DNA from: an uncultured Opitutales bacterium
Lineage (GTDB): Bacteria > Verrucomicrobiota > Verrucomicrobiia > Opitutales > CAZQIE01
Length of the DNA stretch: 64,000 bases
Reading direction: 5' to 3'
Assembly (NCBI GenBank): GCA_964593675.1
Contig: CAZQIE010000005.1
Location: 4,994 to 68,993 of the forward strand
How positions within the stretch are numbered: the stretch's first letter is position 1; the number at the start of each line of letters is the position of its first letter. The notes under the pieces were generated by a model. It was given only the letters and a program-made list of their open reading frames with translations. It ran no database searches and was not told where the DNA came from. This document shows positions 8,148-61,920 of this stretch, piece by piece. A program made the position numbers and the translations under genes.

Positions 8148-8180
8148 AAAAAAGGGCACGCCGCGGCAACGGCGCGCCCT
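8148..8180 (-). terminator. Probable intrinsic terminator downstream of the DUF3347-like gene
   Basis: Minus strand reads agggcgcgccg-ttgccg-cggcgtgccc followed by T6. Confidence 0.55.
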
Positions 8181-8271
8181 GTGTAATCCACCGGCCCTAT
8201 CCCTGCCTGGAGACGCAGGCCTGAAGGCCCCTGATAATAAACCCGCGGGCCCAAACCGGCCCCGGGTCAGG

Positions 8272-20319: not shown

Positions 20320-21978
20320 ATGAGTTCCATGTTCTGTTACCAGTGTGAGCAAACCGCCCAGCGCACGGGCTGCACCGCCATGGGCGTGTGCGGGAAAAAT
20401 CCCGAAACCGCAGCCTTGCAGGACTTGCTCCTCCACGTGTTGAAGGGCATCTCCGGGTATGCGCATGCGGCCTCGCAGGCGGGCGCACGGTCCCGGGAGC
20501 TGGAGCTCTTTGCGCTCGAAGCCCTGTTCACCACGGTTACCAACGTCAATTTCGATCCGGCCCGCCTGCATCACCAGATCCTCCAGGCAGCCCAACACCT
20601 CGATACGGCACGCCGCCTCTACCTCGGGCACCGCAAGCCAGGGACGCCCTCACCCGAAGATATTAATCACGCGACGCGGTGGACGCCCTCGGCGGATCTG
20701 GACGACCTTATCCGGCAGGGTGAGGCGGTGGGCATTGAAGGGCGTCTCGAGAAGGCGTCCCCGGACATTGTCGCGCTGCAAGAGCTCCTGACCTACGGGC
20801 TCAAAGGCATGGCAGCGTATGCGTGGCATGCAACCGATATGGACGAGGACATGGGCGACGCGGCCTTGTTCATCTTCGAGGCCCTTAACGCACTCGCGCC
20901 TGGCCAGGCACCTTCCGCGGACGCTCTTCTCGACCTGTGCCTGCGCTGTGGTGCGGCAAACTTCAAGGTCATCGAGCGCCTTGATGCCGGACACACCCGG
21001 GTGCTCGGCCATCCCGTTCCCACGCAAGTGCGCCTCGATCCCGTCCCCGGCCATTGCATCCTCGTTTCCGGCCACAACCTCGCGGACCTCGAGGCCCTGC
21101 TCCGTCAAACCGAAGGCACGGGCATAAACATTTACACCCACGGTGAAATGCTTCCCGCGCACGGCTACCCGGGCCTCAAAAAATACCCGCACCTCGTCGG
21201 CCATTACGGCGGCGCGTGGCAGGACCAGGCCCGCGACTTCGATCGGTTCCCCGGGGCGATCCTGATGACCACGAATTGCATCCAGCTCCCGAAGCACAGC
21301 TATTTCCAGCGCATCTTCACAAGCGGGCTCGTGGCGTGGCCCGGCGTGCGCCACCTGACCGGCAGGAACTTCGCTCCCGTAATCAAGACAGCACAGCGCA
21401 GCACCGGGTTTACGGAGACCGGCCCCGGCAAGACGCTTACGCTCGGCTTCGGTCACAACGCCGTCCTTAGCGTCGCGGACACGGTGATCAACGCGGTGAA
21501 ATCCGGTGCGATCCGGCACTTCTTCGTCGTCGGCGGATGCGATGGCGCAAAATCCGGACGCAACTATTACACCGATTTCACAAACCAAGTGCCGAAGGAC
21601 TGCGTCATCCTCACGCTCGGCTGCGGCAAGTTCCGCTTCAACCGGAACGAGTTCGGGACCATCGGCGGCATACCGCGGCTGCTCGACTGCGGCCAATGCA
21701 ACGACGCGTATTCCGCCATCAAGATCGCCATCGAACTCGCCAAGACCTTCAACTGCGGCGTAAACGATCTTCCGCTCTCACTTAATATTTCGTGGTATGA
21801 GCAAAAGGCCGTGGCCGTCCTCCTCACTCTGCTGCATCTGGGGGTGAAGAACATCCGGCTTGGGCCCACCCTGCCCGCCTTCGCCACCCCCGCGATCGCG
21901 CAAATCCTGAAGGACAAGTTTAACCTCCAACCGATCACCGACGTGGCAACGGACCTCCAGTCCTGCCTGTCGCGCTAG
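20320..21978 (+). CDS. hcp: Hybrid cluster protein (hydroxylamine/NO reductase)
   Basis: N-terminal MFCYQCEQ…GC…GVCGK cubane motif, plus YTHGEMLPAH, GGCDG, LTLGCGK, DCGQCNDAYSA and SWYEQKAV. Confidence 0.97.
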   Translation: MSSMFCYQCEQTAQRTGCTAMGVCGKNPETAALQDLLLHVLKGISGYAHAASQAGARSRELELFALEALFTTVTNVNFDPARLHHQILQAAQHLDTARRLYLGHRKPGTPSPEDINHATRWTPSADLDDLIRQGEAVGIEGRLEKASPDIVALQELLTYGLKGMAAYAWHATDMDEDMGDAALFIFEALNALAPGQAPSADALLDLCLRCGAANFKVIERLDAGHTRVLGHPVPTQVRLDPVPGHCILVSGHNLADLEALLRQTEGTGINIYTHGEMLPAHGYPGLKKYPHLVGHYGGAWQDQARDFDRFPGAILMTTNCIQLPKHSYFQRIFTSGLVAWPGVRHLTGRNFAPVIKTAQRSTGFTETGPGKTLTLGFGHNAVLSVADTVINAVKSGAIRHFFVVGGCDGAKSGRNYYTDFTNQVPKDCVILTLGCGKFRFNRNEFGTIGGIPRLLDCGQCNDAYSAIKIAIELAKTFNCGVNDLPLSLNISWYEQKAVAVLLTLLHLGVKNIRLGPTLPAFATPAIAQILKDKFNLQPITDVATDLQSCLSR

Positions 21979-47761: not shown

Positions 47762-49114
47762 CTACTTAGCGAGTCGCTCCCCCAGCGCCAGCCCGTTTTG
47801 CAGGCACTGCACCGCCGAGATGCCCCCACGGAAGTTGCCTGCCACATGCAGGCCCGGCCACTGCCGCTCTGCGTCCTCCAGGCACGTCAAATACCGCCCG
47901 TAACCGCACGTGTACTGCGGGATGGAACGCGGCCACAGTATGTGCCTGATGAAACACGGGGCGCCCTGCACCCCAAGCAGCCGCCGCAGGTCGCCCAGGG
48001 CCACTTCCACAAGCCTCCCCGTTTCCAGGCCCGCAAGCTCAGGCTGGCGCGTGCCGCCTATAAACGTCGTCAGGCAGACCTTGCCGTCCGGCGCCCGGTG
48101 CCCATACAGGCTTGATGAGAACAGAGTCCCAAGAATCGAAAGGCGCTCAATTTCCGGAACCAAGGCGCCAAACCCGTCCAGCGGGTGCGCCACCTGTGCA
48201 CGGTCGAACCCGAGCGCCAGAACCGAAATCGGAGGATGCGGTATGGCCCCCAACGGCTGCAACTGGGCCAGAAGCGGCCGCGGCAACGGAAGCCCACTGA
48301 GCGCATAGGCCGGCACAGCCAGCACCACCGCGTCGAAAACTTCCGTCCGCTCGCCGCCCCGTGCGGACCACGAAAGCGACCAGCCCTGCTCCGTCCGGCC
48401 CACGCTTCTCACCACGGCGGACGTCTCCACCGCGCTGCCCAGCGACGCCGCGAGCGCCAAGGGAAGCTCATGCAGACCGTTCGCGAATGAGACCAGCCGC
48501 GCCTTTATGCGGTCCGTCCCCTTCCACTCGCGCTTCTTGGCGATCGCGCCCCGTATGAGCGAGCCATGGTCGCGCTCCAGCGCATACAGGCGTGGGAAAC
48601 CGTGCCGCACAGACAGTTGCTCGGGGCTGCCCGCATATACCCCGGCCACAAAAGCGTTGATCGCGCGCGTCAGAAATTCCTCGCCAAGCCTGCGCCTCAC
48701 GAAGCTTGCAAGAGACTCGTCGTCCTCCGTCGCCTTCGGAGCCCGGATGAACGGCTCCGCGAAAAGGCGCAGCTTTGCCCGTGCGCTGAACAACGGCGAC
48801 GCAATGAACCCGAGGGGCGACAGCGGGGCTGCAACGGGCCTGCCCCCCCGCACGATATAGCGGTTCCGCGCCTCCGCGCTCGATTCCAGCGGCTTTAGCC
48901 CGAGCTTCTCGAGGAACGAAAGCACGCCGGCGCTCGTCACCTGCAGCGTGTTTGGCCCCAGTTCGATCTGGAAGCCCGCCTCGCGCACCGTCCGCATCGC
49001 CCCACCCACTTCGGCCGCAGACTCCAGCACGCGGACCTCCGCGCCCGCCTGCTTCGCTGACCACGCGGTCGTTAACCCGGTAATGCCGGCCCCGATAATT
49101 GCGACGCGCTTCAT
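47762..49114 (-). CDS. hemY: FAD-dependent protoporphyrinogen oxidase (HemY type)
   Basis: IIGAGITGL, ELGPN, GVYAG.PEQLS, GFGALVP, FIGG, W.RSIPQY. Confidence 0.9.
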   Translation of the reverse strand: MKRVAIIGAGITGLTTAWSAKQAGAEVRVLESAAEVGGAMRTVREAGFQIELGPNTLQVTSAGVLSFLEKLGLKPLESSAEARNRYIVRGGRPVAAPLSPLGFIASPLFSARAKLRLFAEPFIRAPKATEDDESLASFVRRRLGEEFLTRAINAFVAGVYAGSPEQLSVRHGFPRLYALERDHGSLIRGAIAKKREWKGTDRIKARLVSFANGLHELPLALAASLGSAVETSAVVRSVGRTEQGWSLSWSARGGERTEVFDAVVLAVPAYALSGLPLPRPLLAQLQPLGAIPHPPISVLALGFDRAQVAHPLDGFGALVPEIERLSILGTLFSSSLYGHRAPDGKVCLTTFIGGTRQPELAGLETGRLVEVALGDLRRLLGVQGAPCFIRHILWPRSIPQYTCGYGRYLTCLEDAERQWPGLHVAGNFRGGISAVQCLQNGLALGERLAK

Positions 49115-50472
49115 ACGGTCTTGGAAAAACGGCCATCGGCGCGGTTAAGGTAGGCGTCAAAGGCCATGGCTATGTTGCGCACAAACAGCCGTCCCAGCGT
49201 GGTGACGCGGAGTCCTCGCCCGTCAATCTGGAGAAGCCCATCCCCCGCCATGTCCGCGAGCGAAGCCAGCTCCCGGGCGTACGTGCCGGCGAAGTCGAAC
49301 CCGAAGTGCCCGGACAGCTCGTGGAAATCCAGCTCCATGTGGCACATGATGCGCATAATGATCTCCCGGCGTCGCCGGTCATCGTCGGTCAAGATGTAGC
49401 CGCGGTCGACCGAGAACTCGCCCTTCTGGACCGCAGCCGCATACGCGGGCAGGTTCTTCAGGTTCTGCCGGTAGCTGCCGGAAGTCTGGGATATCGCGGA
49501 AACGCCGAAGGCGAGAATTTGCGCACCCGCCCGCGTGCTGTAGCCCTGGAAATTGCGCTGCAACGTCCTTGCCCGCTGGGCCCGCACGAGTTCGTCCGTC
49601 TCCTTCGCAAAATGGTCCATCCCGATGTACACGTACCCGCTGCCCGTCAGGACGCGGATCGTCTCCTGCAACATCGCCAGCTTCGTTTCCGGCCCCGGCA
49701 GCCCCGAACGTTCCACAATCTTCTGGGCAGGCTTCATCCACGGCACGTGCGCGTAGTTGAAAATCGCATACCGTTCGGGCGCCAGCCCAAGCACCGCGCC
49801 AAGCGTCTCCCGGAACGTCTCGGGCGTCTGGTGCGGTAGCCCGTAGATGAGGTCGATATTGAGGGACCCGAAGCCGAGTTCACGCAGCCAGCTCGCCGCC
49901 TGGATATTCAGTTCGTGCGGTTGAATGCGGTGAACCGCCTCCTGCACCTGCGGGTGGATGTCCTGCACCCCAAAGGACGCCCGGTTCGCTCCAATCTCCC
50001 GAAATGCCTCCAAATGTTCGCGGGTCAGGCGCCGCGGATCAATCTCGACGCCAAACTCCACGTCCGCCGCGACATCAAAGCGCGCGCGCAGGATCGAGCC
50101 AAGGCGCCGGATCTGGCCCGGACTCAGAAAATTTGGCGTCCCGCCGCCAAGATGCACCTGAATCGCCGTGCGCCGGTCCCCAAGGCGGTCCGCCGTCAGC
50201 CGCACTTCCTTCTCAATCAGGTCAAGATAGCCATCGGCCTTGCTGTGGTCCGCGGTAATAATGGTATTGCACCCGCAAAACCAGCAAAGGGTCTCGCAGA
50301 ACGGCAAATGCACATAAAGTGAAACAGGACCCTGTTCCTCGGAGGCATGTCTTACGAGCGCCCCGTGATCCGCGCTGTCGCCGAATTGGAGGGCGGTCGG
50401 GTACGAGGTGTACCTCGGGCCGGGCCGCGCATATTTGCGAATCAGGTCCTTCTCGGCTTCTCCGATATTCAT
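49111..50472 (-). CDS. hemN: Oxygen-independent coproporphyrinogen III oxidase
   Basis: PGPRYTSYPTA, radical-SAM HLPFCETLCWFCGC, GGGTP, YIGMDHFA, RNFQGYST. Confidence 0.96.
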   Translation of the reverse strand: MNIGEAEKDLIRKYARPGPRYTSYPTALQFGDSADHGALVRHASEEQGPVSLYVHLPFCETLCWFCGCNTIITADHSKADGYLDLIEKEVRLTADRLGDRRTAIQVHLGGGTPNFLSPGQIRRLGSILRARFDVAADVEFGVEIDPRRLTREHLEAFREIGANRASFGVQDIHPQVQEAVHRIQPHELNIQAASWLRELGFGSLNIDLIYGLPHQTPETFRETLGAVLGLAPERYAIFNYAHVPWMKPAQKIVERSGLPGPETKLAMLQETIRVLTGSGYVYIGMDHFAKETDELVRAQRARTLQRNFQGYSTRAGAQILAFGVSAISQTSGSYRQNLKNLPAYAAAVQKGEFSVDRGYILTDDDRRRREIIMRIMCHMELDFHELSGHFGFDFAGTYARELASLADMAGDGLLQIDGRGLRVTTLGRLFVRNIAMAFDAYLNRADGRFSKTV

Positions 50473-51500
50473 GAAAAACGTGCGACAGTATCGATGATCG
50501 CGCCCACCGTTTCGACGCGGGCTCCCGGCGTCAGCCCGTGCCCGAAGTTGAAGATATAACCCGGATCGTTCCGCATCTGCTCCAGCACCGACCGCGTGGC
50601 CGCACGGGCAATGTCAGGAGTTGCGAGCGCAATCTCAGGATGCAGGTTCCCCTGAAGCGCACAGCGTGCGCCCACAGCCCCACGCACAACCGGGAGCGGA
50701 AGCTGCCAGTCCAGCCCGAGCACGGACACTCCCGTGTCGGCGAGGTCTGAAGCCTGCGACGCCTTGCCCCGCGCAAACAGGATGGTCGGGACCTGCCGGG
50801 GCAGCCGGCCTACAACCTGCCGGATCCACCGCAGCGACAACGCCTCGTATTCCTCCGGACCACACAAGCTCGCCCAACTGTCGAAGATCTGTACGGCGTC
50901 CGCCCCCGCCTCAATCTGCATCGCCAGCGACGCCCCGACGGCCTCGGAAACAAGACTCATAAGGTCCTCGAAAAACGCCGGCTCCGCCTTGGCCAGACGC
51001 ACGATCTCAGCCGTCCCGGCTTCGCCCGGTCCACGGCCTTCGGTCATATAGACGGCCAGCGTCCAAGGGGAACCCGCAAAGCCCAGCAACGCACGCGCGC
51101 CTATCTCCGTCCGCAACCTCCGGAGCGTCTCCGCCAGATATTCCAGCCTCCCGGCAACGCCCTTTCCGTTCAGCGCCCCCAGACCCTTCCCCGGCCCTAT
51201 TGAAAACTCCATCTCAATGCCGCCGCCGTTCGGAAAACGGTACGGCTGCCCGAGCGCTTCCGGAACCACGAGGATATCGCTGAACACGATCGCGGCGTCG
51301 AGGTCCGGAAAACGTCGGAGCGGCTGGAGCGTGAGTTCGGTCGCCAAAGCCGGCGTGCGCACCATTTCCGTAAACGCGTGCTTTTCCTTAAGGGCCCGGT
51401 ACTCCGGCAGGTAGCGCCCAGCCTGGCGCATCAGCCAGACCGGCGGGCGGTCCACGGGCTGGCACGTTGCAGCAGCGAGAAAGCGTTCACGGGAAGTCAT
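50469..51500 (-). CDS. hemE: Uroporphyrinogen decarboxylase
   Basis: PVWLMRQAGRYLPEYR, AAIVFSDIL, GFAGSPWTLA.Y, VQIFDSWA, LQGNLHP, IFNFGHG. Confidence 0.96.
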   Translation of the reverse strand: MTSRERFLAAATCQPVDRPPVWLMRQAGRYLPEYRALKEKHAFTEMVRTPALATELTLQPLRRFPDLDAAIVFSDILVVPEALGQPYRFPNGGGIEMEFSIGPGKGLGALNGKGVAGRLEYLAETLRRLRTEIGARALLGFAGSPWTLAVYMTEGRGPGEAGTAEIVRLAKAEPAFFEDLMSLVSEAVGASLAMQIEAGADAVQIFDSWASLCGPEEYEALSLRWIRQVVGRLPRQVPTILFARGKASQASDLADTGVSVLGLDWQLPLPVVRGAVGARCALQGNLHPEIALATPDIARAATRSVLEQMRNDPGYIFNFGHGLTPGARVETVGAIIDTVARFS

Positions 51501-51653
51501 TGTTGCCTCGTTACATTCCGAGACCGATGCCAGGCCCGGCGTTCGCCCGCACACTCTCCCGGTTTGACTTGCCACTTTCGCGACTTATCTAGGGCGGGAG
51601 GCGCACGCCGCGATTCACGCGGTCCGGGCCTAAGGGGATCGGCGGAAGATATT

Positions 51654-52508
51654 ATGAATAAAGCGGGTACGATAGTGGCGGCCACACGCAAGAGCAAGCT
51701 GGCGCTCGCCCAGACGGAACGCGTGCGCGAACTCTTCGCCACCCACCGCCCTGCCCTGCTCTGGCAAGCCCTGCCCATGTCCACCTCCGGCGACCAGCGC
51801 CAGGACTGGTCCCTCATCCAGCACGGAGGAAAGGGCCTCTTCGTGAAGGAACTCGAAGCCGCGATGCTCGAAGGCCGCGCGGACATCGCCGTCCACAGCG
51901 CGAAGGACATGCCGACGACCTTGCCGGAGGGCCTCGTGCTCGCCGGCTATCTGCCGCGCGAAGACGCCCGCGACATGCTCCTTCTCAGGGAGGGCGTCGA
52001 ACGCCCCGCTTCTATTGCGACAAGCAGCCCGCGCCGCCGGCTTCAAGCCGCCCGCCTGTTCCCCGACGCGCAATTTCGCGAGATCCGGGGCAACGTCGAA
52101 ACCCGCCTCCGCAAAGTCGTCGAAGGCGAGGCCGACGCGCTCATCCTCGCCGTTGCGGGCCTCAAGCGCCTCGGCATCCATGCCTGGCCCGGCCTCACCT
52201 TCCAGCCGCTCTCGCTCGACGAAATGGTTCCCGCACCGGGACAGGCCGCGATCGCCGTCGAGTGCCGCGCCGCGGATCTTGACGACCTTCGCCCCCTCTT
52301 TCACTCACCCACCGGCGTCGCGGTGGAGGTCGAGCGCGCGCTGCTCCACCGCTGGGGCGGCGGCTGTCAGAGCGCATTCGCCGCGCACTTTGACGGCACC
52401 GTACTGCGTCTCTTCGACGAAAAACACGGCCTCCGGAAACTCGATCTTTCGGGCCTGACCGCCGCCGGGCTCATGGCTGCCGTTGAGTCCATTCCATTGG
52501 GCACGTAG
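51654..52508 (+). CDS. hemC: Porphobilinogen deaminase (hydroxymethylbilane synthase)
   Basis: TRKSKLALAQ, GKGLFVKELE, AVHSAKDMP, RGNVETRL, PAPGQAAIA, GGGCQ cofactor Cys. Start at ATG 51654. Confidence 0.95.
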   Translation: MNKAGTIVAATRKSKLALAQTERVRELFATHRPALLWQALPMSTSGDQRQDWSLIQHGGKGLFVKELEAAMLEGRADIAVHSAKDMPTTLPEGLVLAGYLPREDARDMLLLREGVERPASIATSSPRRRLQAARLFPDAQFREIRGNVETRLRKVVEGEADALILAVAGLKRLGIHAWPGLTFQPLSLDEMVPAPGQAAIAVECRAADLDDLRPLFHSPTGVAVEVERALLHRWGGGCQSAFAAHFDGTVLRLFDEKHGLRKLDLSGLTAAGLMAAVESIPLGT

Positions 52509-54020: not shown

Positions 54021-54872
54021 CTACTGCTGCGCCTTGACCACAGCCTCCGCGCGAACCTTCAGGCGCTCGGCGTCCTCAGGACGCCGCTCCTGACGGGCGA
54101 CTTGCTCCAGCGCCCGCAAGCACCAGAGCACACCTTCGCTGTTGCCGAGCGACTTGTTAAGCGCCAAAGCGTCCTCCAGATTCTTGCGCGCGAGGGCAAA
54201 ATCCCCCTGCTCGCGCTGCGCCACGCCAACCCAATACAACGAACGCGCGATCTCAGGCCTGTCGCCAAGAGCCTTGTTCAGCGCCAGCGCCTTTTGCCCC
54301 AACTCCAGCCCGAGCGCCGGGTTCGGCGGGTTCCCTTGCACAGCCAGGCATGCCTCCATGTTCACAAGCCTGCCCTCAAGCGCTTTCGCGTCGCTCGCCC
54401 ATTCGCGTGAGCGTTCCAGCCACGTCTTAACGAGCGCCTCCTTGCCCCCCTGCAACGCCGTCAGCGCCGCCACCCAGCACCCTTCCGCAAGAGCCTGACG
54501 CAGCTTCACGGACTCCGGGCCCCGCTCAAAAGCTCCCGGCGCGACCTCAGCCAGCCTCAACGCAGCCTCCACATGCGCCGTGGCATCGTCGTACCGGCCT
54601 TGCCGGTAAGCCACCGACGCCAGGTTCACCAGGGTCGGCACAAGCCCAGGAATGTATTCACAAGCCTGATACCGCTTGAGCGCCTCAGTCAGCTCAAGTT
54701 GCGCCCGCCCGTCCCTGCCCCGCTCCATGGCGGACCGCCCGAGCTGCGCATAATAATCCGCCCGCCGAAGCTCTTCCGAGGCCGCGGGAGCAGGCCCGGT
54801 CGTGCAGCCCGCCAGCAGGAGCGTGCCCGTCGCCACGACGAGCGTGAGATTACGGAAAGACTTAAGGTGCAT
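54021..54872 (-). CDS. Tetratricopeptide-repeat lipoprotein
   Basis: Lipobox LLLAGC; TPR-like helical repeats (TLVNLASVAYRQGRYDDA…, ARSLYWVG..Q..QGDF..AR..LE.AL.LNK). Confidence 0.85.
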   Translation of the reverse strand: MHLKSFRNLTLVVATGTLLLAGCTTGPAPAASEELRRADYYAQLGRSAMERGRDGRAQLELTEALKRYQACEYIPGLVPTLVNLASVAYRQGRYDDATAHVEAALRLAEVAPGAFERGPESVKLRQALAEGCWVAALTALQGGKEALVKTWLERSREWASDAKALEGRLVNMEACLAVQGNPPNPALGLELGQKALALNKALGDRPEIARSLYWVGVAQREQGDFALARKNLEDALALNKSLGNSEGVLWCLRALEQVARQERRPEDAERLKVRAEAVVKAQQ

Positions 54873-55884
54873 GGTCAGGGCTGGGTTGGGGGACAACGCC
54901 GGCGGGCGGCTCTGCAGGCAAGTTCCCGCTGATCGGCCAAAGCTTCTTCACCGCGTGCACAACCTCATTCGCGCCACGGGCGGCATCCGCCCCTTCCTCC
55001 ACAAGCAGCGGAATGCGCGGGGCGGCCTCATTCACAGCCTTGCGCAACGTCCCCGTCATGGATTCCACATGGGCCAGGCTGGAATCCACACGCGTCAGTA
55101 TCCCCGGCACCTCGGAGTTCAGCGTGTGTGTGATGCCCTGCACGTTAGACAGGATGCGCCGGAAATCAGCCTGCGGATCGTTGAAATACGCAAAAAGCTT
55201 GTTCGCCTCCGCCGAGGAATCCTGGACGACCTTCGGCATCATGGACGACACCTGTTCCACGTTCGCCAGCGTCGTATTCACCTTCGCAAGCAACCCGGGC
55301 AGGGCTTCCTGGAGCGTCCGTGTCGTCTCCTGCACATTGCGCAGGTTCTTCCGGAAATCCCCCTCCGGGTCGTTGAACGACTGCAACAGTTTCAGGACCT
55401 CCTGATTGATCGGCGTGATCTGGTCCTTCAGCTCCTGCGACAGTTCCGCGATGCTCTTTTCCGACCGGAACAAAAGCTCGTCGTCCTCTTTTGCCGCCGG
55501 GGTGGACGCGCTTCCCGGCAGCAGGTCGATCACGTTCTGACCAATGAACCCTGTGGCCCGCAGCATCGCCACCGAGTCTTTCTTCACGAACTTGAGATAC
55601 GGATTGTAGACGACGATCTCCACCTTCACACGTCGGTCATCCTGCAGGGAAACGGAGGTCACCTCGCCCACCTTGAAACCGCTGATCTGCACGAACTGAC
55701 CGCGGGCGATGGCGTTCGAGTTGTCCGCGTGGAACGAGAAGCGCGTGCCAGGCGTGAAAACGTCGCGACGCCACGCCGAATAAATGGCCAGACCGGCCAG
55801 AAGGAGGAATGTGAGACCGAGGACCACCTGCACACGGCGGTCCATGCGCTGCAGGTGGGTATCTGAAAACCGTAGGTATTTCAT
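54862..55884 (-). CDS. MlaD/MCE-domain protein with long helical C-terminus
   Basis: N-terminal TM helix; MCE motif G..V..SGFKVGEV..V.L; GFIGQNVIDLLPG. Confidence 0.9.
   Translation of the reverse strand: MKYLRFSDTHLQRMDRRVQVVLGLTFLLLAGLAIYSAWRRDVFTPGTRFSFHADNSNAIARGQFVQISGFKVGEVTSVSLQDDRRVKVEIVVYNPYLKFVKKDSVAMLRATGFIGQNVIDLLPGSASTPAAKEDDELLFRSEKSIAELSQELKDQITPINQEVLKLLQSFNDPEGDFRKNLRNVQETTRTLQEALPGLLAKVNTTLANVEQVSSMMPKVVQDSSAEANKLFAYFNDPQADFRRILSNVQGITHTLNSEVPGILTRVDSSLAHVESMTGTLRKAVNEAAPRIPLLVEEGADAARGANEVVHAVKKLWPISGNLPAEPPAGVVPQPSPDHAP
54990..55385 (-). repeat. Internal 64-aa tandem duplication in the MlaD helical region
   Basis: FNDPEGDFRKNLRNVQETTRTLQEALPGLLAKVNTTLANVE versus FNDPQADFRRILSNVQGITHTLNSEVPGILTRVDSSLAHVE; offset 192 nt. 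Confidence 0.85.
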
Positions 55885-56576
55885 CGGGGGGAAATGGCTT
55901 CGGGCACCGTGTCTTCTGAAGAAAGATTGAGGACCTGGTCGGCCTTGAGCGCCGCCAGCGACGCCTTGTCGACCGCCGTGAACACCGCACAGGCACCAGG
56001 CCGCGACGCCACGCTGTCCATTGCGAGCGCCAGCAACTTTTGCCGGGCCGACCGCTCCTGTTCATCAAGAATGCCGTCGAAAACAAAAACCTCGGGCACA
56101 AGCAGCCGCGCCCGGAGGATGCCGCACAGGTTCCGCGCAAACACGCTCAGCGCCGCTGGGCTTTGGCCCATCCACACCGACAGCTCCTCTTGCGAAAGAC
56201 GCGTCAGCGTCTGGACGCGATCCAGCACCCGGTCCAGCTCCAGGTATAATGCGTTCGCAGTACCACCCCGGTGGAACAACGCCGGAAGCACGATGTTCTC
56301 GCGCACCGTCAGGTTGTGGATCGGGTTCCCCAGTCGCCCGCAATAACCGACACGCCCAAGCAGCTGCAGGCGCCGGTGCTCAGGTTGCGCGTACAAATCC
56401 TCGCAATCGAGAATCCCCACCTTGCCTTCCACGGGAGGCCGGATACCCAGCACCATCTCGCAAAACGCGTCAGTCTGGACACCCGTCTCCCCGAAGACGG
56501 CACCCGTTTCCCCTGCCTTCATGCGCCAGGCCGGGATGTTAAGCGCCCCTCCCTTGATGGCAGTAAGTGCGATCAC
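55881..56576 (-). CDS. Degenerate ABC-ATPase-fold protein (MlaF position)
   Basis: Retains NLTVRENIVLP, but Walker A reads GETGVQTD, signature LSVF and Walker B VFVFDG. GTG start overlaps the mlaE stop (an alternative TTG lies at 56585). Confidence 0.75.
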   Translation of the reverse strand: MIALTAIKGGALNIPAWRMKAGETGAVFGETGVQTDAFCEMVLGIRPPVEGKVGILDCEDLYAQPEHRRLQLLGRVGYCGRLGNPIHNLTVRENIVLPALFHRGGTANALYLELDRVLDRVQTLTRLSQEELSVWMGQSPAALSVFARNLCGILRARLLVPEVFVFDGILDEQERSARQKLLALAMDSVASRPGACAVFTAVDKASLAALKADQVLNLSSEDTVPEAISPR

Positions 56577-57328
56577 AGGACCCAAAAAATTGCGTTGATC
56601 CCCATGACGAGCATGAGGCCGTGGACGACTGCGGCCCGCGTCGCGCGAGGCAGGTCCGACGGGTTATGGCTGACCCTGAGCCCATAGTGGCAAAGCAACG
56701 CCGCGGCCGCGCCGCCAACCGCGAACCCCTTGGCTGCCCGCGTGAGCGCCGAAAAAGGCGTCACTTCCGCCGCCACCGCGTGCGCGAAAGCCGCGAAATT
56801 CACGTCCTCCACCAGCGAGGCAACACTCAGGCCCACAAAAAGGGAGACCGTACGGAAGAACACACCCAGGACGATCATCGCCGTACCCACGCCCAGGATA
56901 CGCGGGACCACGAGGTAGTCCGTGGCGTCAATCCCCATGATATACAGCGCGCGGACTTCACCGCGCTGGCTCATTCCGGCCAGTTCCGAGCCTATGGCCG
57001 GCCCCGACCGCACAAGCACCAGCACGATGCACAGCAGGTTCGAAAGCTCCCCCATCACCAGCTTGTCCACCACCGGCGCCGCAGCGGCCACATTCCCCTT
57101 CAGCAACGCCGTAATCTGCACAATGAAGAGGAACCCCACCGCAGCCCCGACCAGGCAGACGACAGCCAGCGGTTCCACCGCGGTGAAATACAGCTGACGG
57201 AAAAAAACGGACCGGATCACGGGGTTGCGCAAGAGCCTCACCCGCACCAGCGACGACAGAAACAACTCCACCACGTGGGCGACGGTGATCGCCCCTCGAT
57301 GCAGCCGCTTTGCCTGCAGGTTTTCCAT
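56573..57328 (-). CDS. MlaE-family ABC permease
   Basis: RQLYFTAV, ELS.L…VLVRSG.AI.SELA.M…E..AL..MGID…YLVVPR. Confidence 0.9.
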   Translation of the reverse strand: MENLQAKRLHRGAITVAHVVELFLSSLVRVRLLRNPVIRSVFFRQLYFTAVEPLAVVCLVGAAVGFLFIVQITALLKGNVAAAAPVVDKLVMGELSNLLCIVLVLVRSGPAIGSELAGMSQRGEVRALYIMGIDATDYLVVPRILGVGTAMIVLGVFFRTVSLFVGLSVASLVEDVNFAAFAHAVAAEVTPFSALTRAAKGFAVGGAAAALLCHYGLRVSHNPSDLPRATRAAVVHGLMLVMGINAIFWVL

Positions 57329-57450: not shown

Positions 57451-57678
57451 CTATATTTGCACCTGCACCCGCGTCGTCTTGCCGCTCGCCGTTATCGACA
57501 GCAACTCCTTCTTCCACTGGCTGCACCAGGTGCGCACGTCGGACTCGAACCCGTCGCAGTCCGCCGTCACCTCGAGCACGTCGCCAACAGTCACGTCGTG
57601 GCGCATGATGCAGTTAGTCATCTTCAGGGTCGGCACATGGCACCGCAACCCACAGAAATCTCGAACAACAGTCGCCAT
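57451..57678 (-). CDS. TusA/SirA-family small sulfur-carrier-like protein
   Basis: D..GLRC.VP.LK…GDVLEVTAD…F..DV..WC pattern; motif reads CHVP. Start at ATG 57678. Confidence 0.75.
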   Translation of the reverse strand: MATVVRDFCGLRCHVPTLKMTNCIMRHDVTVGDVLEVTADCDGFESDVRTWCSQWKKELLSITASGKTTRVQVQI

Positions 57679-57767
57679 TGGGACAGGAAACCAGGATTCA
57701 GGATAGCAGCCCGCGTAGCTGTGCGGGCCGGCCAAACGTAGAGGTAACGGGAAATGCGGTCAACTGG

Positions 57768-59024
57768 TTAAACCCACCCGGCCCCTGGCCGGACATCGCT
57801 CTTGTGCCCGATGGCAAAGCGCACAGCTTCGGCCAGACGCGCCGCATTTCGGTGCGCATTGAACTCCCGCTGCACCCACGCCCGCGCCTGCACCCGCAGC
57901 CCCTCGCGCAGCGCATGGTCATCACGCACACGCACGATCGCCTTCACCCAGCCCGCAAGATCGTCCAACCGGACCACGAGCCCCGTCTCCCCGTGATGTA
58001 TGGCTTCCGTCGTCCCGGACACCGGAGCCGTAATCACCGGAACGCCCGCCGCCATCGCCTCCGGGATAACATTGGGAAGGCCATCCCGGTCCCCGTCCGG
58101 AGCCACCATGCCCGTGAAAAGGAACGTGTCCGCCCAATTGTAGAGTTCGACAATCTCGCTGTACCGCCGCGCCCCGAGAAGCGTCACCCTGTCCTCAAGC
58201 CCAAGATCATGGATCCGGGCCTGAAGCTGCCGCATAAGCGGACCCTTGCCCACAATGCGCGCCTCAAACGCGACGCCGGCATCATTAAGGGCGCGGTAAA
58301 TCTCAAGCTGACGGAAATAGCCCTTCTTCGGCACAAGCCGCCCCACGCTCAACAACCGCAGCGGTGTGTGCAGTTGCGGACGCGCACGGCACTCCGGAAG
58401 CGTGTCCAGCCCGCGCCGGATCAGCGCCACCTTGTCCGGCCGCGCCCCCATCGAGAGCAGGCGCCGACGCGTCACCTCGGTCGTCGTGTGGATCAGCCGT
58501 GCGTCACGCAGCTTCTCGGGAAGAAGCCAGTCCCCGCCGCAACTGAAAACGTCGAACGCGTGGGCCCCCATCGTGTACGGCACGCCGAGCAACTTGCGCA
58601 GCAGCCAGGCCGCAGACCCCGGGGCTGTCGCCCAGACGGCATGGCAAATGTCGTAGTGCTTCCGCCGCAGTTCGCGACCAAACACCAGCGCAAACCCGAA
58701 CCCCAGGAAGTTCTCCGCCAGGTTCAGCGGACTCGGCATAGGCCGGGACCACAGCGCCTCCAGCGCCTCGCACAGCGCCCGCGGGTTCACCCAGGCCCAA
58801 TACGGAAGCGCCCAGAAAAGCTCAAGCAACCTCAACTTCCGGAAGCGCCGGATTGGGATACCCTCCCATTCCTTGTGCCCCGCCCATAGCGAGAACACCT
58901 CAAAATCGACCGGCAGTTGACGCATCGCCCGCACCTCACGCTGCAGGAACGTTTCCGAGTGCACCGGAAACGTCGTGCAAAGGTAAGCGATCTTCAGGCG
59001 CGGCGCGTCTGTTGGGTCTGCCAT
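57768..59024 (-). CDS. Glycosyltransferase family 4 (GT-B)
   Basis: P.HSETFLQREV, LLSVGRLVPKKG, RDGLPNVIPEAMAAGVPVI. Start at ATG 59024. Confidence 0.92.
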   Translation of the reverse strand: MADPTDAPRLKIAYLCTTFPVHSETFLQREVRAMRQLPVDFEVFSLWAGHKEWEGIPIRRFRKLRLLELFWALPYWAWVNPRALCEALEALWSRPMPSPLNLAENFLGFGFALVFGRELRRKHYDICHAVWATAPGSAAWLLRKLLGVPYTMGAHAFDVFSCGGDWLLPEKLRDARLIHTTTEVTRRRLLSMGARPDKVALIRRGLDTLPECRARPQLHTPLRLLSVGRLVPKKGYFRQLEIYRALNDAGVAFEARIVGKGPLMRQLQARIHDLGLEDRVTLLGARRYSEIVELYNWADTFLFTGMVAPDGDRDGLPNVIPEAMAAGVPVITAPVSGTTEAIHHGETGLVVRLDDLAGWVKAIVRVRDDHALREGLRVQARAWVQREFNAHRNAARLAEAVRFAIGHKSDVRPGAGWV

Positions 59025-59055
59025 TTCGGGAAAACCGGGGTGAAGGAGACGCGGG

Positions 59056-60318
59056 TTAGCTGTTCCAGCGGCCAAAGGCCAGCGCCACGTTTGCGCCGCC
59101 AAAACCGCTGCTGTTGCTCAAGGCGATCCGTGGCCCGTGCGGCAGGTTTTCGCGGATCACGTTCACGCCCTCCGCTTCCGGATCGAGCGTCGTGATGTGC
59201 GCAGACCCCGGCGTAAAGTTCTCCGAAATCGCAAGCACCGTAAGGGCGGCCTCCAGCGCGCCAGCCAACGACAGCCCATGGCCCGTGAGCGCCTTCGTGC
59301 TGCTCACCGCCGGCCGGGCGTCACCATTAAACACCTTCTTGATCGCACGGAGCTCCGAGCGGTCGCCTATCGGCGTGGACGTGGCATGCGCGTTGATGTA
59401 GTCCACGTCCTTGGGCTGGAGCTTGCACGCCTTCAGCGCGTTTTCCATCGCCCGGCACAGCCCCGCACCGTCCGGGTGCGAGATCGCTACATTGTGCCCG
59501 TCCGACGACTGCCCCCACCCCAGCATTTCCGCGTACACCTTCGCGCCACGCTCCACCGCCGCGTCCGCGTCCTCCAACACCATCACCGTCGCCCCGCCGC
59601 TCCCTACGAACCCGTCACGGTCCTTGTCGAACGGACGAGAGGCCTTCTTCGGGTCGGCGTTGAGCGTGAGTGCCCGCATGCCCGCAAACGGCAGGATCGT
59701 CTCAAAATTCCCATCCTCGCCACCCACGACAATCATGCGCTTCTGCCGGCCAAGCCGGATTTCATCAAACGCAAACCCGAGCGCATGACTCGACGACGCA
59801 CAGGCCGACACAAACCCGCACGACGCACCCTGGATCTTGAAATTGGCGACTAGGTTGAACGTCAGCGTCCCGGCGATTGCCGAAACCACACCCATCGGCG
59901 AGCACCGCATGATGCCCTGATTGCGCATCCGGTCCACGTGGTGGTGCAGTAAAAAAGCCGACCCCGCCGAGGCCGTGTAAAGACCCGTTTCCGGCGAAGC
60001 CACCTGCTCCGGCGTCAGCTTCGCATCCTCAATACCCTGGACCATCGCGCAATGCGCGTACAACCCGTGCGGCGCAAACCCGCGCAGCAGCTCCCTCCGG
60101 ATCTTATACTCCGGTGGGCACGTCCAGTCTTCCGGGTCACTCGAGTCCGTCTTGAAACCCTTTACCGTCCCCGCCACCTTCACCGGCACATCCGCCCTGT
60201 CGAACGGCGGATACAGCTCCAGACCCGTGCGCATCTCACGCAGGCTCTTCATGACTTCCGCCTGCGTATTGCCAATACTGCTGATAAAACCGAGACCGGT
60301 GACGACGACTCTGGGCAT
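59056..60318 (-). CDS. Beta-ketoacyl-ACP synthase (FabB/FabF family, FabB-like N-terminus)
   Basis: RVVVTGLGFISSIGN; catalytic Cys in SACASS; His residues in YINAHATST and KALTGH; SNSSGFGGANV. Start at ATG 60318. Confidence 0.93.
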   Translation of the reverse strand: MPRVVVTGLGFISSIGNTQAEVMKSLREMRTGLELYPPFDRADVPVKVAGTVKGFKTDSSDPEDWTCPPEYKIRRELLRGFAPHGLYAHCAMVQGIEDAKLTPEQVASPETGLYTASAGSAFLLHHHVDRMRNQGIMRCSPMGVVSAIAGTLTFNLVANFKIQGASCGFVSACASSSHALGFAFDEIRLGRQKRMIVVGGEDGNFETILPFAGMRALTLNADPKKASRPFDKDRDGFVGSGGATVMVLEDADAAVERGAKVYAEMLGWGQSSDGHNVAISHPDGAGLCRAMENALKACKLQPKDVDYINAHATSTPIGDRSELRAIKKVFNGDARPAVSSTKALTGHGLSLAGALEAALTVLAISENFTPGSAHITTLDPEAEGVNVIRENLPHGPRIALSNSSGFGGANVALAFGRWNS

Positions 60319-60632
60319 TTTGCTGGAAAGAGTGGATTTGCGTCGTGCCTCTTGGCAACGGGACAAATCCGGTCCGCCATCGGGACTCGACGTCAAAAGA
60401 CCTTACTCCCGGGGACTTCCCGCGGCAGCAGGGACTATCGGCATCCCGCACCCAACGGCGTTAATTTTTGAAAGGCGACACTATGGGAACCCACATTCTC
60501 CTTGTCCAGTTCCCTTTTCCAGCCTCCGTTACCGCGAAAGCTCCGCCCCTTAGGCCAAAAACAGGGCCAATCCCAAACCTTCGCGAACGCCCCCAACGGC
60601 GCCCGACCTAAAAAACAGCCCTCTTGGGACAC

Positions 60633-61523
60633 TTAGGCCTGCGCGCTTGCAGGCTGCGCCGTCGAAGCAGCGTCCGTCACGCCCTCGGCCTTGAAGTCGA
60701 ACGTCAGCGCAATCTCTTCCGCAAACGCCACCTTCTCCGACCCACACGTGATGTGCCCCTCGAACACCGCCAGGGGATGCTTGATCCGCTTCGGCTTCAC
60801 CGTGAGCGTCAGCACGTCTTGCGGACGGCACACGCGCTGACACCTCACCCCGTCACACGAGGTAAAATAGATCTTGGTGGCATCCACCGCGCCCGTCAGT
60901 TCCGGACGCTTTGCGGTCAGCAGGAACAGGACCCCAAGCTGCCCCAGCGCTTCCAGCATGATGGAAGCCGGGAATACCGGGTTGTCCTTGAAGTGCCCCT
61001 GCAGGAAAAACTCGTCCCCAGCAATGCGGTAGGTGCCCCGCGCCTCGTCCGAGCGCACCGAGCCATCCTGGATGAACAGGAACGGCTGCTGGTGCGGCAT
61101 CGTCGCCAAAATCTGCTCCACGCTCACGTGCCGGGGCTTCTCCGGGAGCGGCACCCCCTTCGCCTTGCACTCGATAAACGTACGGATGTCACCAATCGAA
61201 CGCAAATCACGCAACTCGTTGTTATCAATCGTCATCCCGAGCGTCGTCTCCACCATCATGACGATTTCGACCATCGTGAGCGAGTCGATGCCCAGATCCT
61301 CCGACAGCCGCAGGTCGTCCGACGCCCCCTTCAGCCGTGGGCGGACTTCCGGGTCAACAAAACGGTCCAAAATGCCCAAAATGATGACAGGCAAGTGCCT
61401 CGTGTCACCTGAGCTACGATACGCGATGGCGGCCTCGACCGTCTCCGGGGTGCAGCGTTTCAAATCGTCCCTCAGTGCACTTTCCTGCTCCGGGGTGAGG
61501 GTCTTCTGCGAGGACACATCCAT
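60633..61523 (-). CDS. Acyl carrier protein-FabZ-type 3-hydroxyacyl-ACP dehydratase fusion
   Basis: ACP motif EDLGIDSLTMVEI (phosphopantetheine Ser), then a FabZ hotdog domain: MPHQQPFLFI…FFLQGHFKDNPVFPASIMLEALGQ. Confidence 0.88.
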   Translation of the reverse strand: MDVSSQKTLTPEQESALRDDLKRCTPETVEAAIAYRSSGDTRHLPVIILGILDRFVDPEVRPRLKGASDDLRLSEDLGIDSLTMVEIVMMVETTLGMTIDNNELRDLRSIGDIRTFIECKAKGVPLPEKPRHVSVEQILATMPHQQPFLFIQDGSVRSDEARGTYRIAGDEFFLQGHFKDNPVFPASIMLEALGQLGVLFLLTAKRPELTGAVDATKIYFTSCDGVRCQRVCRPQDVLTLTVKPKRIKHPLAVFEGHITCGSEKVAFAEEIALTFDFKAEGVTDAASTAQPASAQA

Positions 61524-61920
61524 ACAAAAAGGCATTCGTTTAGGCGTCAGTTAATGGCACGGCCGTAAAGTTTTTAAACTCCTTTTTTGGTTACCCGTCC
61601 CACCTCGTTTCCTCGAAAAACGCCACCCCGGAAGGCCTGAAAGCGTGGAAGCGAAGGCGTTCCTGAAAGTCAGCCCCCCCTGCCAACGGGAAGGTATTTT
61701 AGGCGAGTTACCCCTGCTGTGGAGCAGGTCCCATCAAGTTGTCGCATAAGAAGTGCCGTAGAAGCATCCAGCAGGCAGACGCCGGAACGCAGAGGAGAGA
61801 CGTGGCCGGAATGTCAACCTTACCTCATGCACGTTTGATAACTCCGGGCGTTCACGAACGCCGTACCCTGAGGGGTTCCCCGCGTTGACAGGCAGGGGGC
61901 CAACCGCGAACATCCCCGCC

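Follow-up and report, generated by a model that had tools for sequence, protein, structure and literature searches.

Rhizobia carry an AcpXL cluster in which a dedicated carrier, a FabZ paralogue, and ketosynthase genes supply the chain of a special envelope lipid (PMC5613085). In alpha-, beta-, and gamma-Proteobacteria, a private carrier gene likewise lies beside a gene of the serine palmitoyltransferase (SPT) family: AcpR is a specialized acyl carrier protein (ACP) that serves the bacterial SPT, and a synthetase loads it from free fatty acid (PMC9386255). SgaAB of Pseudomonas fluorescens MYb115, i.e., an iterative type I polyketide synthase (PKS) and a KBL-like oxoamine synthase, produces sphinganines (bioRxiv 10.1101/2024.02.06.579051), where ketosynthase (KS), dehydratase (DH), and ACP functions make a carrier-bound chain that the oxoamine synthase joins to serine. 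Lastly, the supplementary gene tables of a 2021 study list an “ACP + FabZ” protein in two ~160-kb endosymbiont genomes, those of Candidatus Organicella extenuata and Ca. Pinguicoccus supinus; its authors took the fusion for a generic dehydratase of the type II pathway that makes fatty acids (FASII) and described the oxoamine synthase as a “BioF homolog” of unknown function (PMC8204192).

Here, we analyzed a stretch of 64,000 nucleotides (the window) from a hot-spring Opitutales bacterium, in which a gene for an ACP fused to a FabZ-like dehydratase (ACP-DH) is followed by a FabB-like KS gene and a glycosyltransferase (GT) gene. The locus shares with the rhizobial cluster the dedicated carrier, FabZ paralogue, and KS, as well as the gene order (acpXL-fabZXL-fabF1XL/fabF2XL; PMC5613085), but its ACP and DH are fused, whereas the rhizobial cluster has a separate carrier and dehydratase, two KS genes, and an LpxXL acyltransferase. 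No acyltransferase was seen among the annotated conserved neighbors of the pair, and model scores do not indicate that the proteins of the window and of the rhizobial cluster are orthologous. In contrast to the AcpR system, no synthetase was seen here either, and the carrier would instead be loaded by elongation through the KS and the fused dehydratase. SgaA combines all its domains, with AT, KR, and ER among them, in one PKS protein, whereas the Opitutae set is dissociated (type II–like), with the ACP and DH alone fused. The endosymbiont orthologues (39% identity for the fusion, about 47% for the KS) share the order ACP-DH, KS, GT; they differ in a shorter fusion (266 amino acids), in genomes that read UGA as Trp, and, unlike the window, in an SPT-like gene directly upstream and a GT28 gene directly downstream.

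The fusion protein and its ketosynthase

According to the open reading frame (ORF) list, both the fusion gene and the KS gene lie on the minus strand, at the location where the original prediction had placed them (Table 1). The longest ORF of the fusion gene begins at 61535, while position 61523, at which the original prediction had ended its interval, is the second in-frame ATG (Met5). The GT4 gene probably starts at Met27 (59024), 31 nt past the KS stop. The spacer between the fusion and KS genes is far shorter or missing in relatives, and the overlap of both genes in one of these (L090) suggests that they are translationally coupled. No Rfam match to a regulatory RNA was obtained in the spacer or in the leader. 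A promoter scan returned three sites where 1.1 were expected by chance; a weak promoter-like match also lies inside the spacer, at 60480-60508.

Table 1. Features of the ACP-dehydratase locus, in window coordinates.
Feature	Position	Strand	Detail or basis
ACP-dehydratase fusion gene	60633..61535	(-)	300 aa from ATG 61535; 296 aa if Met5, 61523; ORF, Pfam, and homologues
N-terminal helical extension, aa 1-44	61404..61535	(-)	Alignment and model helices
ACP domain, aa 45-126	61158..61403	(-)	Pfam and NCBIfam ACP matches
Phosphopantetheine-attachment Ser85 codon (motif DLGIDSL)	61281-61283	(-)	Invariant Ser85
FabZ-fold hotdog dehydratase domain, aa 135-278	60702..61133	(-)	Sequence matches and fold
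Hotdog sites: His181; Glu195; PAS motif	60993-60995; 60951-60953; 60963-60971	(-)	Invariant in alignment
Spacer between fusion gene and KS gene	60319..60632	(-)	314 nt; 236 nt if KS starts at TTG 60396
FabB-like elongating beta-ketoacyl synthase	59056..60318	(-)	420 aa; Pfam, NCBIfam, PDB relatives
KS sites: Cys173; His311; His347	59800-59802; 59386-59388; 59278-59280	(-)	
GT4-family glycosyltransferase	57768..59102	(-)	Relatives have its orthologue after the pair (41-60% identity)
Sigma-70-like promoter match upstream of fusion gene	61696..61723	(-)	Weak evidence

Pfam, alignment, and an AlphaFold model all agree with the predicted architecture, namely, an ACP and a FabZ-type hotdog domain in one polypeptide, preceded by a helical N-terminal extension. 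Pfam places a PP-binding domain at residues 74-119 (E 2.5e-6) and a FabA-like hotdog at 164-271 (E 7e-17), and in the AlphaFold model (mean pLDDT 83) two extra helices (residues 15-24 and 30-42) precede a four-helix ACP and then the hotdog domain. An alignment of 20 homologues confirmed the catalytic residues that had been claimed, as Ser85 of the DSL motif, His181, Glu195, and P189-A190-S191 (“PAS”) are all invariant in it. Also invariant are R27 and C28 of the N-terminal extension, which carries the conserved motif L-K/R-R-C-x-P-x-T-x-x-A-A...R-x-T-G. This extension is also found in front of stand-alone ACPs of 128-190 amino acids, whose contexts are mixed: some lie in TonB/FecR loci and one near FabV, and one tandem pair of such ACPs has a PhyH dioxygenase and an ACP-KS-GT set alongside.

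The hotdog domain superimposes on FabZ structures with a TM score of 0.86-0.88 (Foldseek) and runs in register with the FabZ sequences of P. aeruginosa and E. coli. It shares the fold, the His/Glu dyad, and the motif register of these canonical enzymes and differs from them in its fusion to an N-extended ACP, in a PAS motif where they have PGV, and in scores below the family cut-offs. The best NCBIfam match of the fusion is FabZ NF000582 (70.7 bits, cut-off 113), TIGR01750, also FabZ, gives 61.2 bits (cut-off 155), and the ten nearest stand-alone hotdog relatives likewise all fall below the curated FabZ cut-off, with 35-85 bits. By these sequence scores, the domain is a member of a FabZ-like clade in which neither the fusion nor any of the ten stand-alone proteins nearest to it attains the FabZ cut-off. 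FabA models match far more poorly (NF003509, 24.1 bits vs. a cut-off of 124; TIGR01749, 21.6 vs. 238). The FabA active site is a His/Asp pair, and the second catalytic residue here is Glu, not Asp.

The claim of a FabB-like KS with an intact Cys-His-His triad held up as well: both KS Pfam domains were found, with a likely start (MPRVVVTG) at 60318, and Cys173, His311, and His347, together with Lys342, align with FabB. The N-terminus also resembles that of FabB. Among solved structures, the KS is nearest to FabB (279 bits, vs. about 230 bits for FabF), whereas the NCBIfam scores do not separate the two, since the protein stays under the FabB equivalog cut-off (345.3 bits vs. 630) and scores nearly the same with FabF (343.6 vs. 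493.75). On PRK09116 and PRK06519, which we take to be models of FabF2XL- and FabF1XL-type KS, respectively, it obtained 230 bits (cut-off 470) and 46 bits (cut-off 320).

The original prediction had envisaged a tethered, oxygen-independent desaturation unit of the FabA/FabB or FabN/FabO kind, in which the hotdog domain would isomerize the trans-2 to the cis-3 enoyl intermediate and the KS would elongate the cis product. A dehydratase gene followed by a KAS I-like condensing enzyme gene is indeed the order of the proteobacterial fabA-fabB pair, the KS is structurally nearer to FabB, and the His/Glu dyad is compatible with such a route, since FabZ-type enzymes with isomerase activity exist (FabN and FabQ). 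We nevertheless found no direct support for desaturation and regard it as very unlikely. The dehydratase is FabZ-type and not FabA-type, the KS misses the FabB cut-off and scores equally on FabF, and a product that stays attached to a private carrier would have difficulty returning to bulk synthesis. The gene context also argues against it: the genes conserved nearby encode glycosyltransferases together with an SDR, a thioesterase, and an SPT-like enzyme, i.e., they are glycolipid-type genes rather than phospholipid or fatty-acid genes, and the module is kept by endosymbionts that make no phospholipids.

Distribution and gene neighborhoods of the pair

Homologues of the fusion reach E values down to 1e-130, and the best 120 all have the same architecture. 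Relatives are encoded by 564 genome stretches, the best 80 of which are near full length and carry the labels of Opitutae lineages (Opitutales, Puniceicoccales) or, more broadly, Verrucomicrobiota. A KS gene follows the fusion directly in 78 of 81 sequences (these 80 loci and the window), and at least two of the three exceptions are cut by a contig end. This search for ACP-FabZ fusions and for a co-occurring KS, which had been suggested along with the original prediction, hence revealed a class-wide pair in Opitutae. Judged from the sequence comparisons, the conservation of the fusion and of the pair is far beyond chance. Much of the synteny comes from common ancestors, and the locus counts given here are therefore not independent events.

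Glycosyltransferases are common around the pair. A full 10-kb downstream flank was available for 45 loci, and in 43 of these the pair is accompanied by a GT4, GT28, or oxoamine-synthase gene; a GT28/UgtP-like gene was found in 40, an SDR in 35, and an oxoamine synthase in 20 of the 45. Upstream sequence of at least 3 kb was available for 68 loci, 57 of which contain a YbgC-type thioesterase. None of the glycolipid-type neighbors was found in Cerasicoccus (L039) and at L009. In the window’s closest relatives (L001-L003 and L081) and in L090, only ACP-DH, KS, and GT4 are present within 10 kb, and in the window itself, neither an SPT-like gene nor an SDR, GT28, or thioesterase gene was found over the 60 kb downstream and 2.4 kb upstream of the pair. 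The pair forms an operon-like unit with glycosyltransferases, and the idea of a dedicated special-lipid module is supported. As to novelty, the fusion is widespread in the class and was already tabulated as “ACP + FabZ” (PMC8204192), whereas the recurrent context of GT (GT4, GT28, GT9), SDR, thioesterase, and oxoamine-synthase genes appears new. We found no characterization of the ACP-dehydratase fusion family in the literature.

The oxoamine synthase adjoins the pair in several arrangements. L082 displays the order ACP-DH, KS, GT28, GT4, followed by convergent oxoamine-synthase, GT4, and SDR genes; L072 has ACP-DH, KS, GT4, followed by convergent GT9 and oxoamine-synthase genes; and L089 has split ACP and hotdog genes, GT4, and a convergent oxoamine-synthase gene. 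In Ca. Organicella, oxoamine synthase, ACP-DH, KS, and GT28 are contiguous on one strand, and its oxoamine synthase is 57% identical to the Opitutaceae copies. Compared with PDB entries, the relatives’ enzyme is closest to Sphingobacterium SPT (303 bits, vs. 215 for KBL and about 185 for BioF), and its best NCBIfam match is serine palmitoyltransferase (375 bits, under the cut-off of 640), although it misses every curated SPT cut-off. The cluster SDR matches KdsR weakly (91 bits vs. a cut-off of 400), and none of the neighbors was identified as a ceramide synthase homologue.

LPS-type genes recur as well: the neighbors include GT9 heptosyltransferase, O-antigen-ligase-like, and exosortase genes, and a Kdo-transferase-like gene adjoins a stand-alone hotdog and KS. 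Together with the rhizobial gene order, and with a core of ACP-DH, KS, and GT4 that is conserved everywhere without the oxoamine synthase, these neighbors would fit an AcpXL-like module that places an unusual (very long, hydroxy, or enoyl) fatty acid onto LPS, lipid A, or another glycan, with no sphingolipid chemistry involved. We consider this unlikely, given that no LpxXL-type or other acyltransferase occurs among the annotated conserved neighbors, that the KS scores lower on PRK09116 and PRK06519 than on FabB or FabF, and that the endosymbionts that keep the cluster are devoid of a Kdo2-lipid A pathway.

A number of other candidates were rejected or gained no support. A functional connection with the Mla-like transporter that the window encodes downstream of the pair was not supported, as MlaE, MlaF, and MlaD are absent within 10 kb of the pair at the 80 other loci, where the TPR gene, the TusA-like ORF, and the CPBP gene were not found within that distance either. 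An aryl-polyene type II PKS cluster would not fit, as no locus contains a chain-length factor or second KS; PF22818 (ApeI-like) is a weak precomputed match only, and a local scan against Pfam did not return it at E<=0.01. A biotin precursor route made of KS, DH, ACP, and BioF was set aside because SPT outscores BioF and no bioA, bioD, or bioB neighbors were seen. A malonyl-ACP decarboxylase was excluded on the grounds that the fusion has the FabZ His/Glu dyad, while the MadA/MadB hotdog family corresponds to Pfam PF09500 with an Asn loop (PMC8666670).

Endosymbiont orthologues and a possible housekeeping role

The fusion could, alternatively, simply be the FabZ of Opitutae equipped with an extra carrier, with the FabB-like KS acting as a second general condensing enzyme, for example, in place of FabH. 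Its His/Glu dyad and FabZ fold are intact, and neither a second FabZ-like gene nor a canonical FabZ or AcpP besides the fusion was found in the window or at the 80 loci. Even the envelope-type surroundings can be counted in favor, as the classical place of a housekeeping fabZ is among genes for the envelope (lipid A). In the two ~160-kb endosymbiont genomes, FASII was counted as complete with “ACP + FabZ” as the only FabZ listed, and FabB or FabF was suggested to stand in for the missing FabH (PMC8204192). The original prediction, which had set the module apart from a housekeeping FabZ, does not hold in this respect for these two genomes, where the fusion must at least manage general elongation.

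Several observations nonetheless render a purely housekeeping role doubtful. Identity between the fusion and E. coli FabZ is just 27-32%, the fusion falls short of the FabZ equivalog cut-off together with its nearest stand-alone relatives, and its invariant PAS stands where canonical FabZ has PGV. In one Lacunisphaera MAG record, the fusion is labeled “fabZ 1,” a hint that this genome has another fabZ, and the operon partners are glycosyltransferases. Moreover, the tiny endosymbiont genomes hold a separate AcpP and FabF, which argues that the extra carrier and second KS were retained for another reason. In support of the reading that we favor below, Ca. Organicella has a full FASII and this cluster, while it lacks genes for glycerol-3-phosphate acyltransferases, phospholipid head groups, and Kdo2-lipid A (PMC8204192), such that the cluster would be the only visible sink for its fatty acids. 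If the fusion were, after all, the only FabZ of the lineage, it would represent a rare instance of a type II fatty-acid synthase with a covalently tethered carrier.

A proposed route to an envelope glycolipid

The reading that we favor, tentatively and with a probability of roughly 45%, is that the fusion, KS, and GT4 form a dedicated lipid unit of the class Opitutae that makes the chain of an envelope glycolipid, and not a pathway for unsaturated fatty acids. This glycolipid is probably sphingolipid-like, and the role of the unit in building a chain and handing it over would resemble that of rhizobial AcpXL-FabZXL-FabFXL, AcpR/Spt, and SgaAB. The ACP domain would be phosphopantetheinylated at Ser85 and loaded with malonate by the cell’s FabD, upon which the FabB-like KS would condense a fatty acyl chain from the general pool onto this private carrier. 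A ketoreductase, i.e., the cluster SDR where present and otherwise FabG, would reduce the 3-oxo group, and the fused FabZ-type domain would dehydrate the 3-hydroxyacyl intermediate. The carrier, which is distinct from AcpP, would then bear the chain as an enoyl thioester or, if an enoyl reduction follows, as a saturated acyl thioester, and the chain would be passed to a specialized lipid enzyme. In many relatives, this enzyme would be the alpha-oxoamine synthase that is closest to SPT, yielding a sphingoid-like long-chain base, and the clustered GT4, GT28, and GT9 would glycosylate the product to an envelope glycolipid. We infer these biochemical steps and the identity of the product, as well as their extension to the window’s organism, whose window contains no SPT-like gene.

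In a more specific version, the Opitutae, with the ciliate endosymbionts Ca. Organicella and Ca. Pinguicoccus among them, would produce a glycosylated sphingoid-type envelope lipid whose base arises from a dissociated “sphingoid synthase.” In such a scheme, the KS would extend the chain on the dehydratase-fused ACP, the SPT-like enzyme would condense it with an amino acid, and the resulting lipid might be heptosylated and LPS-like; direct use of the 2-enoyl thioester could give a 4,5-unsaturated base without any desaturase. Taken as a whole, this combination is improbable, but if true, it would explain why the symbionts kept fatty-acid synthesis and glycosyltransferases despite having no phospholipid or lipid A pathways. 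In the literature searched on ACP-dehydratase fusions and on sphingolipids in Opitutae or Verrucomicrobia, we found no report of sphingolipids in Opitutae; apart from the Organicella paper, it yielded only a survey of Black Sea MAGs that counted Spt-like genes in 22 MAGs of Verrucomicrobiota (PMC11334938).

The fused family joins two known ideas, the ACP/DH/KS sets that serve special lipids and the dedicated carriers that serve SPT. If the link to SPT is true, elongation onto a private carrier would constitute a third feed for bacterial sphingolipid synthesis, next to loading by an acyl-ACP synthetase and synthesis by an iterative PKS, and sphingolipid-like chemistry would reach the Opitutae. 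It would also offer a concrete and testable answer to the question of how two of the smallest bacterial genomes known use the fatty-acid synthesis that they have retained.

A carrier-dehydratase fusion and its ketosynthase

The original prediction described a polypeptide that joins an ACP to a dehydratase and lies beside a FabB-like ketosynthase (KS), and every detail of that observation was borne out by the ORFs, Pfam and NCBIfam searches, the alignment and the structural model. The fusion, the KS and a family 4 glycosyltransferase (GT4) are encoded by three co-directional genes. Position 61523, where the prediction had the fusion gene end, is Met5 of the protein, and the public gene call of 296 aa starts there. 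According to Pfam, aa 74-119 match a phosphopantetheine-binding domain and aa 164-271 a FabA/FabZ-like hotdog domain. For the C-terminal half, the nearest NCBIfam model is FabZ (70.7 bits versus a cut-off of 113), with FabA models scoring no more than 22-24 bits. Across 20 aligned homologues, Ser85 of the DSL motif, His181, Glu195 and a P-A-S motif, which stands where the canonical motif is P-G-V, are invariant, as are Arg27 and Cys28 of the N-terminal extension. The AlphaFold model (mean pLDDT 83) begins with two extra helices, after which come an ACP of four helices and, past a short linker, the hotdog domain, which matches FabZ crystal structures at TM 0.86-0.88.

Coordinates of the features discussed, by sequence of origin
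Feature	Sequence	Position	Strand	Size or content
Fusion, KS and GT4 genes	window	57768-61535	minus	three genes
ACP-dehydratase fusion gene	window	60633-61535	minus	300 aa
Fusion-KS spacer	window	60319-60632		314 nt
KS, best start (MPRVVVTG)	window	60318	minus	420 aa
TusA-like sulfur-carrier ORF	window	57451-57735	minus	94 aa
MlaE-like gene	window	56573-57328		
Mla-like ATPase-position gene	window	55881-56585	minus	
MlaD-like gene	window	54862-55884		
Haem-biosynthesis cluster	window	49111-52508; 47762-49114		
Hybrid-cluster (prismane) protein	window	20320-21978		
Secreted-type subtilase (Peptidase_S8)	window	10214-15613	minus	1799 aa
Stand-alone hotdog, KS, Kdo-transferase-like gene	L088	8001-11032		hotdog 158 aa
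Second ACP-KS-glycosyltransferase set; tandem N-extended ACP genes and PhyH-family dioxygenase	L087	1721-4330; 8001-9967		
Protein inside cluster	L084 (Ca. Organicella)	7385-8743		~450 aa
Protein inside cluster	L020 (free-living Opitutaceae)	17200-18549		~450 aa

The KS carries Cys173, His311, Lys342 and His347. Against solved structures it scores higher with FabB (279 bits) than with FabF (about 230 bits), and on NCBIfam the two models tie (345 and 344 bits), with both scores below cut-off. The GT4 begins 31 nt past the KS stop if Met27 is taken as its start. The spacer between fusion and KS is unusually long; the two genes overlap in L090, a related locus, and gaps elsewhere are mostly far shorter. 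Because this long spacer contains a single weak promoter-like site and has no Rfam match, the KS in the window may be driven by its own promoter.

Distribution and stand-alone relatives

The pairing of the fusion with the KS is real and conserved. A protein search returned 1775 relatives of the fusion; the 120 best range from 279 to 358 aa and share its architecture. When one genome per species was scanned, 564 stretches encoded relatives. The top 80 of these are nearly complete in length, and each bears the label of an Opitutae lineage (Opitutales or Puniceicoccales) or the broader one of Verrucomicrobiota. The carriers include the cultured species Oleiharenicola lentus and Cerasicoccus arenae, and the window DNA is present in hot-spring metagenome runs. 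The KS lies directly downstream of the fusion in 78 of 81 sequences, and of the three exceptions at least two are truncated by the end of a contig.

Both halves of the fusion also have stand-alone relatives. The N-terminal extension with its ACP occurs as proteins of 128-190 aa, 38-49% identical to that of the window, in varied contexts, and FabZ-like hotdogs of the same clade stand alone as well. At least two of these have the same partners beside them, namely a KS (L088) and an ACP, a GT4 and an oxoamine synthase (L089). Because each half is found alone, the fusion seems to combine two genes that remain separate in other lineages. In L088, the hotdog and KS are followed by a Kdo-transferase-like gene (Glycos_transf_N), an arrangement that may connect the dehydratase/KS module to the assembly of the LPS core. 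The metagenome contig L087 has a second ACP-KS-glycosyltransferase set and, about 4 kb from it, two tandem genes for N-extended ACPs beside a PhyH-family dioxygenase; given these gene sets, the N-extended carrier family may act in several lipid-tailoring systems.

The architecture was already on record: "ACP + FabZ" is listed for Ca. Organicella extenuata and Ca. Pinguicoccus supinus, ciliate endosymbionts with ~160-kb genomes, in the gene tables that Williams et al. supply as a supplement (PMC8204192). The Organicella protein is 39% identical to that of the window. Williams et al. treat the fusion as a generic FASII dehydratase, and in the endosymbiont gene lists it is the sole FabZ, beside separate AcpP, FabF, FabG, FabD and FabV (PMC8204192), which favors a housekeeping FabZ, a reading compatible with a dual role. 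We nevertheless consider this improbable: The fusion is only 27-32% identical to E. coli FabZ, scores below the model cut-off and replaces PGV by PAS, its nearest stand-alone hotdog relatives also fail the FabZ model, and one Lacunisphaera record carries the name "fabZ 1", a hint that a second copy exists.

Neighboring genes and the endosymbiont case

ORFs from the 81 sequences were clustered, and families that recurred were annotated. In the usual Opitutaceae order, a divergently transcribed YbgC-type thioesterase and GT4 come first, followed by the fusion, the KS, an SDR, a GT28/UgtP-like lipid glycosyltransferase and a GT4 orthologous to that of the window; a convergent alpha-oxoamine synthase and another GT4 follow some 7-10 kb downstream. 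A complete 10-kb flank on the downstream side is available for 45 loci, and 43 of them have a neighboring GT4, GT28 or oxoamine synthase (GT28 in 40, SDR in 35, oxoamine synthase in 20), counts that are not independent events because synteny is mostly inherited. The oxoamine synthase (AOS) stays close to the pair across differing arrangements: in L082 (GT9, fusion, KS, GT28, GT4, then convergent AOS, GT4, SDR), in the complete chromosome OY829953.1 (fusion, KS, GT4, then convergent GT9, AOS), in L089, an Opitutales MAG with separate genes for ACP and hotdog (ACP, dehydratase, GT4, then convergent AOS), and in Organicella, where AOS, fusion, KS and GT28 are contiguous on one strand.

This oxoamine synthase is nearest to serine palmitoyltransferase (SPT), with 303 bits against the Sphingobacterium enzyme, compared to 215 for KBL and about 185 for BioF. 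It falls below every curated SPT cut-off, the NCBIfam SPT model giving 375 bits against a cut-off of 640. The Organicella copy, annotated as "BioF homolog, unknown" (PMC8204192), is 57% identical to the Opitutaceae copies and is the best-conserved protein of the cluster. For the window's organism, the SPT link is an extrapolation, since an SPT-like gene, like the SDR, GT28 and thioesterase, is absent from 60 kb downstream and 2.4 kb upstream of the pair, and the closest loci (L001-L003, L081), as well as L090, contain only the fusion, KS and GT4 within 10 kb. L009 and the Cerasicoccus locus L039 have none of these neighbors, a ceramide synthase was not identified, and a literature search found no report of sphingolipids in Opitutae.

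The ~450-aa proteins within the clusters of Organicella and L020 have no Pfam or NCBIfam match, and the Organicella protein had no match at E 1e-5 among the ORFs called in 80 loci, a set from which the L020 copy may be missing; either could be the missing N-acyltransferase or a flippase. Downstream of the GT4 in the window, a TusA-like ORF on the same strand precedes the MlaE-like gene; it adjoins the pair in none of 80 related loci, and the Mla-like transporter genes are likewise not linked to the pair in the 80 other loci. The gene in the Mla ATPase position has a weak ABC_tran match (18.6 bits, E 0.003) and, by eye, no normal Walker A lysine (GETGVQTD) and VFVFDG at the expected Walker B, so its product may be a degenerate, non-hydrolysing subunit.

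Organicella lacks phosphatidic-acid-making acyltransferases, genes for phospholipid head groups and the pathway to Kdo2-lipid A, and retains complete FASII, heptose-activation genes and glycosyltransferases (PMC8204192). In its gene list, the SPT-like protein, encoded directly upstream of the fusion, is the sole enzyme that might consume a fatty acyl thioester; we infer this ourselves, and it is not a conclusion of those authors. It would tie the fusion, KS, oxoamine synthase and glycosyltransferases into one pathway, and thereby explain why all four are retained.

The same genomes bear on two alternatives. A tethered, O2-independent desaturation of the FabA/FabB type, as originally proposed, draws its only support from the gene order and the similarity of the KS to FabB, and is unlikely: the dehydratase does not resemble FabA, the surrounding genes are not those of phospholipid synthesis, and the module has been kept in endosymbionts that make no phospholipids (PMC8204192). 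An AcpXL-like role in LPS acylation would fit the recurrent GT9, Kdo-transferase-like and O-antigen-ligase-like neighbors; the module has no acyltransferase partner among its annotated conserved neighbors, however, and the endosymbionts lack the lipid A pathway (PMC8204192), making this role distinctly improbable.

Elsewhere in the window, an MFS transporter is preceded by a haem-biosynthesis cluster made up of a HemN resembling oxygen-independent coproporphyrinogen oxidase, HemE, HemC (labels assigned by eye from translations) and a flavin amine-oxidase-family (HemY/HemG-like) gene, which was scanned. Together with the prismane protein, this cluster fits the "microaerobic" impression of the original prediction and is unrelated to the fusion/KS finding. 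The large subtilase carries PPC and Ig-like domains.

A candidate route to an envelope glycolipid

We favor, at a probability of roughly 45%, a dedicated unit of fusion, KS and GT4 that builds the chain of an envelope glycolipid, probably sphingolipid-like, and not unsaturated fatty acids. The "special-lipid module" was thus the better half of the earlier interpretation, with desaturation the unlikely one. In such a unit, the private carrier would receive malonate in trans, the FabB-like KS would draw a chain from the general pool and condense it onto this carrier, the 3-oxo group would be reduced by FabG or the cluster SDR, and the tethered dehydratase would act on the 3-hydroxyacyl intermediate. 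The carrier-bound chain would then be used by the SPT-like enzyme, and glycosyltransferases would decorate the product.

By analogy, each of these putative elements has a precedent. The rhizobial acpXL-fabZXL-fabF1XL/fabF2XL-lpxXL cluster, which makes a special envelope lipid chain, shares the order ACP, dehydratase, KS (PMC5613085). Proteobacterial SPT uses a specialized ACP encoded by an adjoining gene (PMC9386255), and in Pseudomonas fluorescens sphinganines are made when a KBL-like oxoamine synthase takes over the ACP-bound chain of an iterative PKS (bioRxiv 10.1101/2024.02.06.579051). Among Verrucomicrobiota, 22 MAGs have been counted as carrying Spt-like genes (PMC11334938). Of the new leads, the most informative is that the module is associated with glycosyltransferases and an SPT-like enzyme and has been retained in ~160-kb genomes.
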